DNA from: Bacillota bacterium
GTDB taxonomy: Bacteria > Bacillota > Negativicutes > CTSoil-072
NCBI GenBank assembly: GCA_017889545.1
Contig: JAGFZV010000008.1
Location: forward strand, 70,874 to 134,873
DNA length: 64,000 nt
Reading direction: 5' to 3'
The notes under the pieces were generated by a model. That model searched no databases. It was not told where the DNA came from and saw only the letters and a program-made list of their open reading frames with translations. This document shows, piece by piece, positions 899 to 60,164 of the stretch (within the stretch, counting starts at the first letter, position 1; every line of letters begins with the position of its first letter). A program made the position numbers and the translations under genes.

Positions 899-1085
899 TT
901 ATCCACACAGTTATCCACAGATGTTAATAATAAAATACAAAAAAAGTGAATTTGACGAAAAAAAATACAATTACGGCTTTTTTAAAAATCCCGTACCATT
1001 GTATTTGGACTGATAAAATAGATACATCTGCTGATAAATAAAATTGTGGATAAACTTGTGTATAAATAGGTATAATTGTGGATAA
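899..1085. promoter_or_regulatory. oriC DnaA-box cluster between divergent dnaA and rpmH
   Basis: Four perfect TTATCCACA 9-mers: 899-907 and 911-919 (forward), 1045-1053 and 1077-1085 (TGTGGATAA, reverse); AT-rich stretch about 920-1000 as possible unwinding element; location between dnaA and rpmH. Confidence 0.8.
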
Positions 1086-1357
1086 CAGGTGTTTATTTCC
1101 CTTTATGAAAAGGATTTTTTCTGTTAATCACTATTCCATGATACCAAAATATGGACAGGTTATCAACAAATTGATTCAAAAATGTGACCCTCCAGCACAA
1201 AAAAATAACTGGTAAATAGTGGTGTTCAATTGGCGTGTGGATATCTTCTTTCAAATTTCTTGACACTGGGTATAGGAGTGGTCTATAATCTTTATAGTTA
1301 GGGTAATAGTCGATTATTTTGAATGTTGCTGTTTGGATGCAAGGAGGTGTTGGGCTA

Positions 1358-1492
1358 ATGAAACGGACTTACCAACCGAATACGTTGTGGAAAAAAAGAA
1401 CTCATGGTTTTCGTGAGAGGATGTTAACTCTAGGTGGTCGTATGGTTTTAAAAAGAAGGCGTGCACGGGGCAGAAGGAAGCTTTCTGCGTAA
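1358..1492 (+). CDS. rpmH: 50S ribosomal protein L34
   Basis: 44-codon [58 protein letters not shown] at 1341-1349; below ORF-track size cutoff. Confidence 0.95.
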
Positions 1493-53977: not shown

Positions 53978-55210
53978 ATGCTTCATCACGCTGGAATTTT
54001 ATTAACACATAGGCTAGCATTGCAGCTAGCTGTATTTCTTTTGGTTCGCAGGACGGTGATTGAGTTGGGGCAATACCGAACGTTTTTATTCGGCCTTGTT
54101 GTTGGTCTGTGTTGGTTTTCTTTATATGCTTGCATCCCGGTATTAGCTCCTTATGCGCAAGAAATGGGAGCCTCCTATGAAATGATTGGTCTGATCATTG
54201 GCGGTTATGGCTTATCGCAGATGTTAATGCGAATCCCTTTGGGCATTTTATCAGATAGACTGAATCAACGGAAAATTTTTGTCATCATCAGTATGTTGCT
54301 GTGTATGATCAGCAGCATGGGGATATGGTTTTTCCCTGATGTTCAGGCGTTGTTGATTTTTCGTTCGATTGCAGGCCTTGCGGCATCCGTTTGGGTAATT
54401 CAGTCTGTGCTGTACGCAAGCTACTTTCCTGTCGCGCAACTGTCCCGGGCAATGGGCAATATTTCGGCGATCTGTTATGCTGGTCAGATGATAGGATTTC
54501 TATTTGGCGGAATAACAGCCTATTATTTGGGCGCTGCTGCCATTTTTTTGGTGGGAACGATTTCCGGAGCGCTTGGTTTCGTCTTAAGTTGTTTTATTGT
54601 AGAGACTAAGTCTGATAGCCGCCAGACGATCCGCTGGATAGACCTATTGGCGACAGCCCGTGACAAGCGACTGAATTTAACGGCATTGCTTGCCGCTTTG
54701 CTGCAGTTCATGGCTTTCGCGACAGTGTTTGGCTTCACCTCACTGGTTGCTAAGAAGATTGGCGCGAATGATTTGGAATTAGGAATGATGACGACCTTGT
54801 ATATTTTGCCGGGCATCGTGGCTTCCGTGCTGAGCGGACCATTTTTTGCCGCACGTTTTGGCGAAAAGAAACCGTTGACGATCAGCTTTGTTGTTTCTGC
54901 AGTTTCTTGTGTCGTCACGCCGTTTATCAGTAGTATCCCTGTTTTGTATCTTTGGCAGATTATCGGCGGCTTTGCCCGTGGGTTGGCCTTTCCGCTGCTG
55001 ATGAGTCTCAGTATCCAGCACATCGCAAATGAAAAGAGAGCAACGGCGATGGGGTATTTTCAGGCTATTTATGGTTTGGGAATGTTTCTCGGGCCAATGA
55101 CAGCAGGATGGACAGGCGCTCACTTAGGACTCGACTGGGTTTTCGTGATTATTGGCGGGATTACGCTAACTGGCGCGGCGATAACGAAGGCTTACTTGAA
55201 GGAAACATAA
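53978..55210 (+). CDS. MFS transporter
   Basis: 410 aa, about 12 TM helices; exact start uncertain. Confidence 0.8.
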   Translation: MLHHAGILLTHRLALQLAVFLLVRRTVIELGQYRTFLFGLVVGLCWFSLYACIPVLAPYAQEMGASYEMIGLIIGGYGLSQMLMRIPLGILSDRLNQRKIFVIISMLLCMISSMGIWFFPDVQALLIFRSIAGLAASVWVIQSVLYASYFPVAQLSRAMGNISAICYAGQMIGFLFGGITAYYLGAAAIFLVGTISGALGFVLSCFIVETKSDSRQTIRWIDLLATARDKRLNLTALLAALLQFMAFATVFGFTSLVAKKIGANDLELGMMTTLYILPGIVASVLSGPFFAARFGEKKPLTISFVVSAVSCVVTPFISSIPVLYLWQIIGGFARGLAFPLLMSLSIQHIANEKRATAMGYFQAIYGLGMFLGPMTAGWTGAHLGLDWVFVIIGGITLTGAAITKAYLKET

Positions 55211-55226
55211 AGGAAGGGGCACGCTG

Positions 55227-56384
55227 ATGAAGCCGTTGTTAAAATGGCCGGGCGGAAAGACGGGGGAAATGAAAGTGATTGAGCAATTCATTCCCCGCTA
55301 TGAACGATATATTGAACCTTTTTTCGGCGGCGGCGCTGTTTTTTTTCATCTGCCACCGGGAAAAGCTGTTCTCAACGATATATCAAAAAACCTAACGGAT
55401 TTTTATACTTTGGTCAAGAAACAGGATTCGCAGTTTGAACGTGCATTGTATTCTTATAATCAATCCTGGAAGTTGGTTGGCGATTATTTTGACTCCGTAT
55501 TCCCGGAGCTTTCCACAGCTTATCAAAAATTCCGGAGAGGAACCTTAGCTGACGAGGAGTTAAATTCAGAAATTATAAGCGCACTGGCCAGATCGTATTC
55601 ATTATTCGTAACGCTTTTTTCGCAATCGGTGATTGGGGACAGTGAAAAATTATTCGGGGAAATACAACACAATTGCATAGATAAGATAAGACGAATGATT
55701 CAATTGGAACATAAAATGCAGCAAGAATTGCATGCCGGCGACTTGAAAGATAATATGGAAACGGGGTTTCGGAGAGGATTTTATGTTCATGCCCGTAATC
55801 TCTATAATGCCATTGCCTTACGCGCAGAAATTGCGGATCAGATATCGGCTGAGGAGAAAGCGGCCAATTTTTATTTTATCAGGGAATATTGTTATGGATC
55901 CATGTTTCGGTATAATCGCAGCGGAGAATTTAACATACCGTATGGCGGCATTGCATACAATAAAAAAAATTTTACCAGGAAGATTGACCGTTTATTTCAA
56001 CCGGAAACAAAAACCTATTTTCAGCAAGCAGATATTTACAATATGGACTTTGAGTCTTTTCTCATGTCAATTGACCCCTCGGAAGAAGATTTTATTTTTT
56101 TAGATCCCCCGTATGATTCCGATTTTTCCGATTATGAAGGCTTGTCGTTTGGCAGGAACGATCAACTCAGATTAGCCAACTTATTGGGAAAAATGCAGGC
56201 GAAGTTTATTCTGGTGATAAAAAATACGGATTATATTATTGATTTGTACCAACCCAGAAGACACCTGATGATCCTGGATTTTGACAAACAATATGCTTAT
56301 AATGTCAAAAGCAGGAATAATCGGGATGTGAACCACCTGATCATTACGAATTGTCATGCACCAACAAAACGGAACGGATGGTGA
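55227..56384 (+). CDS. Dam-like (D12 class) N6-adenine DNA methyltransferase, orphan
   Basis: 385 aa; motifs LLKWPGGK, EPFFGGGAVFF and FLDPPYDS in D12 order; about 100-aa insert between motif I and DPPY; gene visibly more AT-rich than neighbours; no nuclease gene adjacent. Confidence 0.8.
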   Translation: MKPLLKWPGGKTGEMKVIEQFIPRYERYIEPFFGGGAVFFHLPPGKAVLNDISKNLTDFYTLVKKQDSQFERALYSYNQSWKLVGDYFDSVFPELSTAYQKFRRGTLADEELNSEIISALARSYSLFVTLFSQSVIGDSEKLFGEIQHNCIDKIRRMIQLEHKMQQELHAGDLKDNMETGFRRGFYVHARNLYNAIALRAEIADQISAEEKAANFYFIREYCYGSMFRYNRSGEFNIPYGGIAYNKKNFTRKIDRLFQPETKTYFQQADIYNMDFESFLMSIDPSEEDFIFLDPPYDSDFSDYEGLSFGRNDQLRLANLLGKMQAKFILVIKNTDYIIDLYQPRRHLMILDFDKQYAYNVKSRNNRDVNHLIITNCHAPTKRNGW

Positions 56385-58847: not shown

Positions 58848-60164
58848 ATGAACAGCGGAAGCCAGAATATCACACAGAATCTTTTTTCAGAAAACGATGA
58901 AGCTACATGGAAACGTCGGTGGAAAATGCTGTACGCAGCTGTCGCCGGATACGCAATGGACGGATTGGATATGTTGATCCTATCGTTTGCAATGGCGGCG
59001 ATTATCAAGGAATTCGGCATATCTTATGCAGAGGGCGGCTGGATTGCAACGTATACACTGATTGGCGCCGTTCTTGGGGGATATTTTTTTGGGATTGCCG
59101 CCGACTACATGGGCCGGGTCCGGGTGTTTGCTCTTACCATCGTTATTTTTTCTATTTTCACTGGATTATGTGCAGTTGCACAGTCCGTAAATGAATTGAA
59201 TATATACCGCTTTTTAGCCGGACTGGGGCTTGGCGGAGAATTTGGCATCGGTATGACTCTGGTAGCGGAAACCTGGCCTGCTGAGAAACGGGCCAGGGCG
59301 ACAGCCGGCGTAGCCATCGGCTGGCAGCTGGGAGTGGTAATGGCCGCAGTGCTGGCTGCGATTGTGATGCCGTTGTATGGCTGGCGGGGACTTTTCCTGG
59401 TAGGGGCATTGCCGGCCTTGTTTGCTGCCTGGTCGCGAAGAAATTTGCCGGAGCCGGACATTTGGGTTGAGCGTAAAGCGCGCACGAAAATAATTGCCGC
59501 CAAACAATCGGTCGGTGGAACTCTTTCCCCGGAAGAACAGGACTTATTGGCAAATGCCAGCAAATTTCCTTTAATGCATCTTTTTGTTGATGGCAGGAAA
59601 ACCATCATTACTTTTTCGCTCACTGTTATGACGAGCGTGCAAAATTTTGGGTATTACGGGATTATGATTTGGCTGCCGACAATACTGATGCAAAAGCATG
59701 GGTTATCATTAAATAAAACAACAACTTGGATGGTTGTCACTGTCCTTGGAATGATCGTGGGGATTTACTTATTTGGGTATTTGGCCGACCGCGTTGGCAG
59801 GCGACCGGTCTACATGACTTTTTACCTGGGTTCCGCGGCCTCTGTTTGGATCTATTCCGGTTTGACTGATCCCATGCAACTATTGGTTGGCGGAGCTGTC
59901 CTGGGCTTTTTTTGCAATGGAACGATGGCTGGCTTTGGAGCATTATTATCCGAGCATTACACGACAGATGCGCGTTCCACCGCACAAAATTTTATTTTTA
60001 ATTCCGGCCGTGCTGTAGGCGGTTTTGCTCCGGTAATCATTGGCATGCTGGCGCAGCAATATACGTTGAGCGGTGCGCTTGCCGTGCTTGCCTTCATTTA
60101 TATTGCTGCTGCTGTAAACTTGTTCTTCCTGGTACCGGAAACGAAAGGCGCAGCGTTGAAATAA
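58848..60164 (+). CDS. MFS transporter
   Basis: 438 aa, 12 TM helices; starts 2 nt after pyrD stop. Confidence 0.8.
   Translation: MNSGSQNITQNLFSENDEATWKRRWKMLYAAVAGYAMDGLDMLILSFAMAAIIKEFGISYAEGGWIATYTLIGAVLGGYFFGIAADYMGRVRVFALTIVIFSIFTGLCAVAQSVNELNIYRFLAGLGLGGEFGIGMTLVAETWPAEKRARATAGVAIGWQLGVVMAAVLAAIVMPLYGWRGLFLVGALPALFAAWSRRNLPEPDIWVERKARTKIIAAKQSVGGTLSPEEQDLLANASKFPLMHLFVDGRKTIITFSLTVMTSVQNFGYYGIMIWLPTILMQKHGLSLNKTTTWMVVTVLGMIVGIYLFGYLADRVGRRPVYMTFYLGSAASVWIYSGLTDPMQLLVGGAVLGFFCNGTMAGFGALLSEHYTTDARSTAQNFIFNSGRAVGGFAPVIIGMLAQQYTLSGALAVLAFIYIAAAVNLFFLVPETKGAALK

Follow-up and report, generated by a model that had tools for sequence, protein, structure and literature searches.

A solitary long-form Dam-family DNA adenine methyltransferase gene of probable GAWTC specificity in an uncultured Negativicutes lineage

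Introduction

Dam of E. coli, DpnM of S. pneumoniae and Dam of phage T4 are adenine methyltransferases of the sequence GATC, and the structures of all three have been solved (PDB 2g1p, 2dpm and 1yfj, respectively). DpnM is a component of the DpnII-type restriction-modification (R-M) cassettes, in which an alpha-class methyltransferase (DpnM) and a beta-class methyltransferase (DpnA) are found together with an endonuclease.

Not all relatives of these enzymes act on GATC. The methyltransferase of the pA3H9 type II R-M system (Psychrobacter sp. ANT_H3, WP_181716615) protected GAWTC in an assay (PMC10457243). In Moorella thermoacetica, a protein annotated as a 'DNA adenine methylase' (Moth_0026 / MothHH_00029) produces G(m6A)WTC, found at 99.7% of 4600 sites, while methylation of GATC is the work of a separate, shorter enzyme. 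The expression plasmid for Moth_0026 was 315 bp (~105 codons) larger than that for the GATC Dam of the same genome, and according to the same report REBASE had predicted GASTC as the target (PMC6700114).

Orphan m6A methyltransferases that act on GANTC or GAWTC are also known, in the form of CcrM and its GAWTC variants in SAR11 and Rhizobiales. The GAWTC variants are accompanied by genome-wide depletion of GAWTC, with no depletion of GASTC (PMC8919816).

Here, a solitary methyltransferase gene of the Dam family is described from an uncultured Negativicutes genome. The window, to which all positions refer, is the whole 64 kb stretch of DNA that was analysed.

The methyltransferase gene and its locus

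In profile searches, the open reading frame matches MethyltransfD12 (PF02086) at 1.1e-37, with 130.6 bits against a cut-off of 22, and scores 162.5 bits against the 114.85-bit cut-off of the TIGR00571 dam model, which bears out its initial annotation as a Dam-like N6-adenine methyltransferase. It falls short of the E. coli Dam equivalog model (NF008152), scoring 85.5 bits where 441 are required. The D12-class motifs can be read from the translation in the order that had been claimed for them, K6-W-P-G-G-K11, F32-F-G-G-G36 and D293-P-P-Y296 (Table 1), and with the insert and hairpin (residues 68-245) lying between the second and third of these, the arrangement is that of the alpha class. K6 is the aligned counterpart of K9 in E. 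coli Dam, a residue that Horton et al. are said to have found in 2006 to read the first G of GATC.

All 73 of the residues that are invariant in a 66-member family alignment are present. An AF2 model of the protein (pLDDT 89, pTM 0.88) has E. coli Dam, DpnM and T4 Dam as its best Foldseek matches, with target-normalised TM scores of 0.77-0.82 and, for E. coli Dam, E = 1.6e-12. Judged by its sequence and predicted fold, this is a real and intact gene for a D12/Dam-family (alpha-class) m6A methyltransferase.

Table 1. Features of the methyltransferase locus, in window coordinates
Feature	Position	Strand	Basis
MFS transporter gene, upstream of methyltransferase	53978..55210	+	PF07690, 2e-51
Shine-Dalgarno-like GGAAGGGG, 7 nt before ATG, inside 16-nt spacer	55212..55219	+	sequence
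Solitary long-form D12/Dam-family N6-adenine DNA methyltransferase gene	55227..56384	+	ORF, 385 aa
KWPGGK, residues 6-11, N-terminal	55242..55259	+	translation; invariant in 66 family members
Motif I FFGGG, residues 32-36, predicted AdoMet binding	55320..55334	+	translation; F32, G34 and G36 invariant
Family-specific helical insert, target-recognition domain, residues 68-198	55428..55820	+	unmatched by PDB Dam/DpnM; gap in Dam alignment; AF2
Predicted DNA-contact hairpin region YGSMFRYNRSGEFNIPYGGIAYN, residues 223-245	55893..55961	+	alignment with Dam and pA3H9 enzyme
Motif IV DPPY, residues 293-296, predicted catalytic	56103..56114	+	translation; family-invariant

The order of genes around the methyltransferase is rpsF, ssb, rpsR, MFS, methyltransferase, rubrerythrin-like ORF, pyrK, pyrD, MFS and an HD-domain gene, and there is no nuclease among these neighbours. 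The distance of 16 nt from the MFS gene, as first annotated, is exact, the MFS stop codon occupying 55208-55210 and the methyltransferase ATG starting at 55227. Because this spacer contains no terminator-like site, and no promoter-like site is seen directly upstream of the methyltransferase, the two genes are likely to be co-transcribed. Homologues of the genes that might be expected as partners (TdeIII-type endonuclease, beta-class methyltransferase, C-protein, HNH) were sought by tblastn across the 64 kb, and nothing was returned below E = 0.03. With an MFS gene and a rubrerythrin-like gene at its sides and no partner homologue in the window, the gene is rightly called an orphan without an adjacent endonuclease.

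The helical insert and the DNA-contact hairpin

Matches between the protein and the PDB sequences of DpnM and E. coli Dam are split into two pieces, covering query residues 2-75 and ~198-375 and leaving ~120 residues between them unmatched. A MAFFT alignment with E. coli Dam (278 aa) places ~105 extra residues between R79 and V90 of Dam, in good agreement with the earlier estimate of about 100 additional residues between motif I and DPPY. In the AF2 model, helices are formed by residues 68-103, 109-121, 124-130, 139-164 and 170-198, with a mean pLDDT of 89-98 over 10-residue blocks. This all-helical insert has no counterpart in the solved structures of Dam, DpnM and T4 Dam and, as had been proposed, it lies in the target-recognition part of the enzyme, the helical domain.

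The insert had, however, been presented as a special enlargement of one gene, whereas it is rather the hallmark of a subfamily: the best 120 of 6222 homologues are all 368-396 aa in length, with query coverage of 97-100%. Relatives of 370-395 aa that carry the insert number in the thousands, and residues 4-375 of the protein match positions 8-357 of 374 in the PADLOC type II methyltransferase profile PDLC03349, end to end. By these comparisons the long-form subfamily is large and already known, and the gene described here is an ordinary further case. When the insert was searched alone, weak matches were obtained to 23 representative clusters, in every case lying around residues 70-210 within D12-length proteins of <=407 aa; the idea of a borrowed domain is unsupported, there being no other domain architecture among these 23 matches.

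The hairpin region is equivalent to residues 119-138 of Dam, with a two-residue insertion (GG-IA) in place of Dam R137. Across the family, Y223, M226, R228, N230, P238, G240, G241, Y244 and N245 do not vary, and the segment PYGGIAYN at residues 238-245 fits the signature PYGG[ILM][AS]YN, which was derived here from alignments and has no published definition behind it. Equivalents of Dam K9, Y119, R124, N126, P134 and Y138 are conserved in the alignment, and the window enzyme has both the contact residues of Dam and the hairpin signature in common with the GAWTC-tested pA3H9 enzyme. The model and these alignments suggest the helical insert and the two residues inserted in the hairpin as a candidate structural basis for the reading of GAWTC. 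To our knowledge, there is no solved structure for the long-form subfamily, and none that shows insert-based widening of a 4-bp site to a 5-bp site. A DNA-bound long-form structure would show how the Dam scaffold reads one more base pair, a question that belongs to the long-form family and not to one particular gene.

Relatives and their genomic context

The methyltransferase is 46-58% identical to its relatives at 80 genome loci. A TdeIII-family PD-ExK endonuclease adjoins the methyltransferase in 51 of 83 related loci, the neighbouring endonucleases scoring 38-122 bits with Pfam RE_TdeIII (PF09520, cut-off 27.2), and wherever an endonuclease is present it lies within a few kb. Most of the 51 loci add a CcrM-like beta-class methyltransferase, and many add a C-protein. 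Relatives are found in plasmids, a phage and integrative elements. It would appear from these arrangements that the long-form Dam subfamily normally provides the modification enzyme of type II R-M cassettes with TdeIII-family endonucleases. In a neighbour-joining tree, the pA3H9 enzyme forms the deepest branch, and the clade containing the window enzyme has as its sister an R-M-linked copy that is carried by a mobile element (L004).

The gene had been described as markedly AT-rich and, on that account, as horizontally acquired. Its GC content of 0.396 is indeed the second lowest in a set of 50 ORFs (mean 0.461, sd 0.032; z = -2.0), but its GC3 of 0.420 is near the average of 0.453 (z = -0.76). 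The deficit therefore sits in codon positions 1 and 2 (GC 0.446 and 0.324, respectively), reflecting amino-acid composition, and because GC3 is normal, composition is rejected as evidence of transfer. Transfer itself is favoured on other grounds, namely the phylogeny and the occurrence of relatives in mobile elements. Identity to Sporolituus is 50% for the methyltransferase vs 76% for MnmG.

The arrangement MFS-methyltransferase-rubrerythrin-pyrKD is kept in two sister species, L088 (80% identity) and L001 (77% identity), in which dS for the methyltransferase is comparable to that of neighbouring genes, and on both counts these sequences support an old acquisition. Relative to the syntenic orthologues, dN/dS is 0.13-0.18, which is 2-3x that of neighbouring genes, with values of 0.245 in the insert vs 0.058 in the N-terminal part and 0.162 in the C-terminal part. 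Among the three species that make up the sample (window, L088 and L001), the gene is thus conserved vertically, at a fixed chromosomal site and under purifying selection.

Target specificity and the distribution of sites

The specificity of the enzyme, given as unknown in the initial annotation, can now be narrowed, as an insert-bearing homologue with the same contact residues protects GAWTC (PMC10457243) and the Moorella enzyme makes G(m6A)WTC (PMC6700114). The pA3H9 enzyme is 37% identical to the window enzyme over 97% coverage, in a single tblastn piece, and from this relative at that identity we infer specificity for GAWTC. Moth_0026 also appears to be a long-form enzyme, its homology being drawn from annotation, size and primer-encoded termini only; no exact primer match to these termini was found in the metagenome collection, and none of the 382 proteins compared carries them. 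Given the GASTC prediction that REBASE had made for the Moorella enzyme, the preference at the central base may vary within the family. On present comparisons the most likely target is GAWTC, rather than GATC. This amounts to a prediction of G(m6A)WTC, not G(m6A)TC, as the modified motif in this uncultured Negativicutes genome, and automatic 'Dam' labels on D12 enzymes of ~375 aa are not to be taken as indicating GATC.

GAWTC occurs 97 times in the window against 135.7 expected (O/E 0.71, z = -3.3). The depletion is moderate: the z score is the second most negative of 512 5-mers, with a Markov-simulation p of about 0.002, and two unrelated 5-mers, TCCAA and GCCAC, are depleted equally. In L088 and L001 the bias has the same direction, with O/E 0.81 in both. 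GASTC is at expectation in the window (O/E 0.96), L088 and L001 (73 observed vs 72.7 expected), as is GATC in the window (285 observed, O/E 0.98). An unbiased k-mer depletion scan, covering ~1 Mb of flanks of related loci, has GAATC/GATTC as the second most depleted 5-mer (O/E 0.62) where the flanks belong to R-M-positive loci. R-M-positive loci differ weakly from R-M-negative ones in this respect (p = 0.058), and the scan is taken as supportive only. Many palindromes, CTAG, GGCC, CATG and GATC among them, are depleted in the flanks from gut Clostridia.

There is no intergenic enrichment of GAWTC, 9 of the 97 sites falling in non-coding DNA, which makes up 12% of the window, and so nothing points to a regulatory role. 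Clustering of sites at the origin or at promoters was not found in the window; DnaA boxes cluster at 899-1394, and this region has a single GAWTC site. It had been remarked that the oriC region (784-1357) contains no GATC, and this is literally true, there being none between 742 and 1719 and six at 460-741, just upstream. A connection between GATC and oriC was considered and rejected, however, since a stretch free of GATC is unremarkable where the tetranucleotide is at expectation overall; the remark is in any case irrelevant because the target, if GAWTC, differs.

Alternative explanations and proposed mechanism

Taken as a whole, these comparisons make it probable, though well short of certain, that the gene encodes an active, solitary, long-form alpha-class D12 m6A methyltransferase of R-M origin, with GAWTC its most likely target, which has been maintained by selection as an orphan. 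It is improbable that it is instead a canonical Dam orthologue that methylates GATC, with the insert a neutral decoration. The TIGR00571 result, the conserved equivalents of Dam K9, Y119, R124, N126, P134 and Y138, and the fact that the nearest solved structures are those of GATC enzymes would all fit such an orthologue, but the score lies far under the E. coli Dam equivalog cut-off, Dam R137 has given way to two inserted residues in the contact hairpin, and in the window it is GAWTC that is depleted while GATC is unbiased. Moreover, the long-form pA3H9 relative and the apparently long-form Moorella enzyme act on GAWTC, and Moorella makes its GATC methylation with a different, shorter protein. 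An active long-form enzyme with some other specificity (GANTC, GASTC, GADTC or another GA..TC variant) is rather unlikely. In its favour, identity to the best characterised relative is no more than 37%, the REBASE prediction for Moorella suggests that a GASTC relative may exist (PMC6700114), and highly identical members of the CcrM family interconvert between GANTC, GAWTC and GADTC specificity (PMC8919816); set against this are contact residues identical to those of the GAWTC enzyme, and the depletion of GAWTC alongside GASTC at expectation in all three species.

The remaining alternatives concern the solitary state of the gene. Most relatives are R-M-linked and the examined span is 64 kb, so that the enzyme might supply the modification in a working R-M system with its endonuclease outside the window. 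This is quite improbable, given that the endonucleases of related loci lie within a few kb of the methyltransferase, that no partner homologue is present in the 64 kb, and that the solitary arrangement is repeated in two sister species. If the gene were an inactive remnant, decaying after the loss of its R-M system, it might likewise be solitary and show a dN/dS raised 2-3x over neighbouring genes, yet three species keep an intact frame, every family-invariant residue is kept, dN/dS is well under 1 even in the insert, and the AF2 model is confident, all of which renders decay extremely unlikely.

For the favoured selected orphan, the following course of events may be proposed. An ancestor of this Negativicutes lineage would have acquired the methyltransferase without endonuclease genes, or would have lost them afterwards, and the methyltransferase would then have been kept by purifying selection between the MFS transporter and rubrerythrin-like genes, adding one more to the R-M methyltransferases that, once parted from their endonucleases, have persisted as conserved orphans. 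By analogy with Dam structures, and from the conserved residues, FFGGG would bind AdoMet, K6 and R228 would read the outer G:C pairs, and Y223 would intercalate while the target adenine flips into the DPPY pocket, where the methyl group would be passed to its N6. On each strand, methylation would fall on the second base of 5'-GAWTC-3', the Dam site being widened by a central A/T pair. In the absence of an endonuclease, the enzyme could serve in protection from incoming GAWTC-cutting R-M systems and phage-borne nucleases, or in genome-wide epigenetic marking. A bolder version, which must be considered unlikely, is that a vertically inherited solitary GAWTC methyltransferase acts as a genome-wide epigenetic regulator, a CcrM analogue on a Dam scaffold, in which the insert and hairpin insertion widen GATC to GAWTC.

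Comparison with known systems

The pattern of GAWTC but not GASTC depletion in the window resembles that of the CcrM GAWTC variants. CcrM, however, is a beta-class enzyme (N6_N4_Mtase) that is not homologous in domain order to the window enzyme, and a functional analogy between the two is speculative. Moth_0026 is a chromosomal, D12-annotated enzyme of the Bacillota, as is the window enzyme, and its C-terminus (...HLMITNY) resembles the family sequence HLIITN; its low locus number suggests a place near the start of chromosome numbering. The pA3H9 enzyme has the same helical insert, the PYGG-x-x-YN hairpin and the KW-GGK, F-GGG and DPPY motifs. It differs in having a TdeIII-family endonuclease upstream as its sole partner, a protein homologous to the TdeIII-family endonucleases of Clostridia, whereas the window gene is without an endonuclease.

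The cassettes of the relatives follow the same logic as those of the DpnII type, combining methyltransferases of both classes (alpha-class D12 and beta-class N6_N4) with an endonuclease. They differ in that the endonuclease comes from the TdeIII family instead of the DpnII family, there is often a C-protein as well, and the nearest match of the beta-class enzyme is CcrM (GANTC). The window contains none of these partners. With E. coli Dam, DpnM and T4 Dam, the window enzyme shares its fold and the order of its motifs, but its DNA-binding domain is longer by ~105-130 helical residues, and its likely site is one of 5 bp rather than 4 bp.

A long-form Dam-family methyltransferase

The methyltransferase gene of the window is an intact, conserved and solitary member of a known subfamily of long-form Dam enzymes (~370-395 aa), derived from TdeIII-type restriction-modification (R-M) cassettes. 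The D12-class motifs KWPGGK, FFGGG and DPPY are present in the order described by the initial annotation. In a profile search the protein matches Pfam PF02086 (MethyltransfD12) at 1.1e-37; it passes the cut-off of the TIGR00571 'dam' subfamily (162.5 vs 114.85 bits) and falls far short of that of the E. coli Dam equivalog (85.5 vs 441 bits). Among solved structures, a sequence search finds DpnM (1e-22) and E. coli Dam (1.4e-17), each match being split in two (residues 2-75 and ~198-375). It is very probably an active m6A methyltransferase of the long form.

MAFFT alignment with E. coli Dam places ~105 extra residues between Dam R79 and V90, bearing out the insert of about 100 aa noted earlier between motif I and DPPY. 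An AF2 model, made from an alignment of 66 family members, is of high confidence (pLDDT 89, pTM 0.88) and predicts five helices in residues 68-198 (68-103, 109-121, 124-130, 139-164 and 170-198). Foldseek matches to the model are limited to Dam, DpnM, T4 Dam and Mcbe1, with TM scores of ~0.8 when normalised to the target but ~0.52 when normalised to the query, so that the insert is left without an equivalent in the solved Dam structures. Nothing points to a borrowed domain: a search with the insert by itself against 1.84 billion representative proteins gives only 23 clusters, always at ~residues 70-210 of proteins no longer than 407 aa. The insert is instead a divergent elaboration, internal to the family, of the helical DNA-binding domain, and has a dN/dS of 0.245, compared with 0.058 for the N-terminal and 0.162 for the C-terminal part.

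The best 120 of 6222 database matches are all 368-396 aa long, with 97-100% query coverage and 46-99% identity, and come from Clostridia, Negativicutes, Vulcanimicrobiota, Synergistia, Aerococcus, Sneathia and others. A PADLOC type II methyltransferase profile of 374 positions spans residues 4-375 in one stretch. On these comparisons the insert is a family trait, not peculiar to this gene, and what had been singled out as an enlarged insert of unknown specificity is accounted for by what is already known of the long-form family.

Features of the window, the methyltransferase and related loci (handles beginning with L)
Feature	Position	Strand	Detail
DnaA boxes	899-1394		four perfect, four one-mismatch
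rpmH	1319-1492		
MFS ORF	53978-55210		410 aa as called
Shine-Dalgarno-like GGAAGGGG	7 nt before methyltransferase ATG		inside 16-nt spacer
D12/Dam-family methyltransferase gene	55227-56384	+	intact ORF, 385 aa
KWPGGK	residues 6-11		
FFGGG	residues 32-36		
DPPY	residues 293-296		
Equivalent of Dam K9	K6		alignment
Equivalent of Dam Y119	Y223		alignment
Equivalent of Dam L122	M226		alignment
Equivalent of Dam R124	R228		alignment
Equivalent of Dam P134	P238		alignment
Equivalent of Dam Y138	Y244		alignment
Second MFS gene	58848-60164		between pyrD and HD-domain gene
~248-aa Mrr_N-like/HNH-like ORF	L027 9153-9899	-	
~248-aa Mrr_N-like/HNH-like ORF	L087 4530-5282	-	also L030, L031, L035, L062, L068
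Second TdeIII-like ORF	L044 9148-10041	-	~297 aa
TdeIII-like/beta-class fusion	L041 4009-5658	-	549 aa
Uma2-type-endonuclease-like ORFs	L007 1643-2194 and 3426-5774 (with the other flanking ORFs)		by eye

Genomic surroundings and inheritance

The gene order is rpsF, ssb, rpsR, MFS transporter, methyltransferase, rubrerythrin-like 162-aa ORF, pyrK, pyrD, second MFS and HD-domain gene; as first reported, no nuclease is found among these neighbours. Orphan status holds throughout the window, since tblastn of the 64 kb with TdeIII-type endonucleases, the beta-class methyltransferase, the C-protein and the HNH ORF, which represent every partner type, returned nothing (best E = 0.036). The spacer of 16 nt that separates the MFS stop codon from the methyltransferase ATG was also recovered, and as no terminator-like site was found between the two genes, they are likely to be co-transcribed.

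The gene is indeed AT-richer than its neighbours (GC 0.396 vs a mean of 0.461, sd 0.032, z = -2.0, over 50 ORFs in the window), but the suggestion that this points to transfer did not survive. GC3 is 0.420 vs 0.453 (z = -0.76) for the same ORFs, the deficit lies in codon positions 1 and 2, and synonymous sites look native. The gene is AT-rich because its protein is rich in residues with AT-rich codons, as expected of a family found mostly in low-GC Clostridia. Composition by itself is weak evidence of recent transfer.

Older transfer is another matter. The host is an uncultured member of the Negativicutes. Its MnmG matches that of a 'Firmicutes bacterium' MAG at 100% identity, with 76% for Sporolituus and ~74% for Sporomusa, whereas the Sporolituus methyltransferase is just 50% identical to that of the window and lies in a different context, which supports independent horizontal acquisition of the two, as judged from sequence comparison. 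Two sister species (L088 and L001) keep the order from rpsF to pyrD, and their methyltransferases share 80% and 77% identity with that of the window. The dS of the methyltransferase gene (0.59-1.0) is in the range of its neighbours (0.69-1.16) and its dN/dS is low (0.13-0.18, vs 0.04-0.09 for neighbouring genes); together with the synteny, these values show vertical inheritance since before the species split, under purifying selection. The gene is not a relic.

Outside the genus, close orthologues of the MFS gene are lacking (next best 49%), and the two genes may therefore have arrived together. Translation of the MFS gene probably begins further downstream than 53978: an identical database protein (P0241) has 396 aa and the sister-species protein 381 aa. 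The window and L001 have the second MFS gene, which L088 lacks (13835) in an otherwise syntenic block.

The window begins at the replication origin, with DnaA boxes that run from just upstream of rpmH into its start, followed by rnpA, yidD, yidC, jag, mnmE and mnmG. The reported lack of GATC there was confirmed, with none at 742-1719 (a 979-bp stretch), but six sites lie at 460-741, and the overall count of 285 is close to expectation (observed/expected, O/E, 0.98). These six tie the window's densest 300-bp GATC cluster.

Relationship to restriction-modification cassettes

ORFs were called and clustered around 83 related loci. In 51 of them a ~287-aa PD-ExK protein passing the Pfam RE_TdeIII cut-off (38-113 vs 27.2 bits) is encoded no more than a few kb from the methyltransferase, in most cases convergently. 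Most of these cassettes add a ~232-aa beta-class N6_N4 methyltransferase (best NCBIfam match CcrM, 1.6e-39), and often a ~70-aa HTH C-protein. Some carry a second, paralogous TdeIII-like ORF, in one case fused to the beta-class methyltransferase, perhaps pointing to a heterodimer or to a two-enzyme arrangement. An ORF of ~248 aa, weakly Mrr_N-like at its N-terminus, with an HNH-like Cys/His motif at its C-terminus and matching no Pfam or PADLOC family above threshold, directly adjoins the long-form gene in 11 loci and recurs (58% identity) in a Monoglobales temperate phage that lacks a TdeIII-type endonuclease; it may be an alternative nuclease partner. In Vulcanimicrobiota relatives the context is different and defence-island-like: by eye, two Uma2-type-endonuclease-like ORFs flank the methyltransferase, together with a regulator-like ORF and another ORF bearing D12-like motifs.

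In ~20 loci with adequate flanks, including Sporolituus (L005) and L070, the methyltransferase is solitary or in other contexts. Solitary and R-M-linked copies are interspersed in an NJ tree, where the window clade is sister to L004, a 58% identical copy on an element carrying an integrase, a recombinase, a beta-class methyltransferase and a TdeIII-type endonuclease. Long-form enzymes are also plasmid-borne and occur in the Monoglobales phage (47.5% identity). The role of the orphan, in protection or regulation, and the relation of the insert to 5-bp recognition are family-level rather than locus-level questions.

Target specificity

An unbiased k-mer scan of R-M-positive flanks, which preceded the reading of the literature, ranked GAATC/GATTC (GAWTC; W = A/T, S = G/C) as the second most depleted 5-mer (O/E 0.62, z = -10). 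In the window GAWTC occurs 97 times vs 135.7 expected (O/E 0.71; GASTC 0.96), its z of -3.3 being the second most negative among 512 5-mers, and a count as low arose in 0.2% of 1000 third-order Markov simulations. O/E values for GAWTC, GASTC and GATC are 0.81, 1.22 and 1.06 in L088, and 0.81, 0.95 and 0.89 in L001; over all three loci GAWTC totals 147 vs 197.5 expected and GASTC 73 vs 72.7. The pattern matches depletion reported for SAR11 and Rhizobiales with GAWTC methylation (PMC8919816). The depletion is only suggestive of specificity, as two other 5-mers are equally depleted, R-M-positive and R-M-negative loci differ only weakly in the per-locus comparison (p = 0.058) and intergenic DNA of the window shows no GAWTC enrichment. 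The two 5-mers, TCCAA/TTGGA (O/E 0.76, z = -3.5) and GCCAC/GTGGC (O/E 0.64, z = -3.3; whole window), have no explanation; the most depleted 4-bp palindromes are CGCG, CTAG, GGCC and GTAC.

In Moorella thermoacetica, the product of Moth_0026 (annotation 'DNA adenine methylase') generates G(m6A)WTC, with 99.7% of 4600 genomic sites modified and confirmation by PfeI, while G(m6A)TC is the product of another enzyme, Moth_1737 (Jensen et al.; PMC6700114). For expression, Moth_0026 was carried on a plasmid 315 bp larger than the one used for Moth_1737 (PMC6700114), and the Moth_0026 reverse primer encodes ...HLMITNY*, resembling the HLIITN C-terminus of the long-form family, from which we infer that Moth_0026 is a long-form enzyme. 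The 8.6-kb Psychrobacter plasmid pA3H9 carries a minimal pair, a TdeIII-family endonuclease (122 bits), homologous to those of the Clostridia cassettes (E about 1e-14), followed by a 376-aa D12 methyltransferase. The latter, expressed in E. coli, recognises 5'-GAWTC-3' in a protection assay (PMC10457243).

The window protein aligns with the pA3H9 methyltransferase in one piece, end to end and insert included (37% identity, 97% coverage), and its own specificity is, on balance, probably GAWTC m6A. In E. coli Dam, K9 reportedly reads the first G and Y119 intercalates, while L122 and P134 are said to contact the third base pair and R124 the fourth. Equivalents of this DNA-reading set are conserved in the window enzyme, and all six aligned residues are identical in the GAWTC-verified pA3H9 enzyme. 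Both enzymes replace Dam R137 with a common two-residue insertion, PYGG-(I/L/M)(A/S)-YN. The conserved contacts and shared hairpin insertion fit a coherent model in which the outer G-A...T-C is read as in Dam, around one additional central pair, to which the helical insert would be tied.
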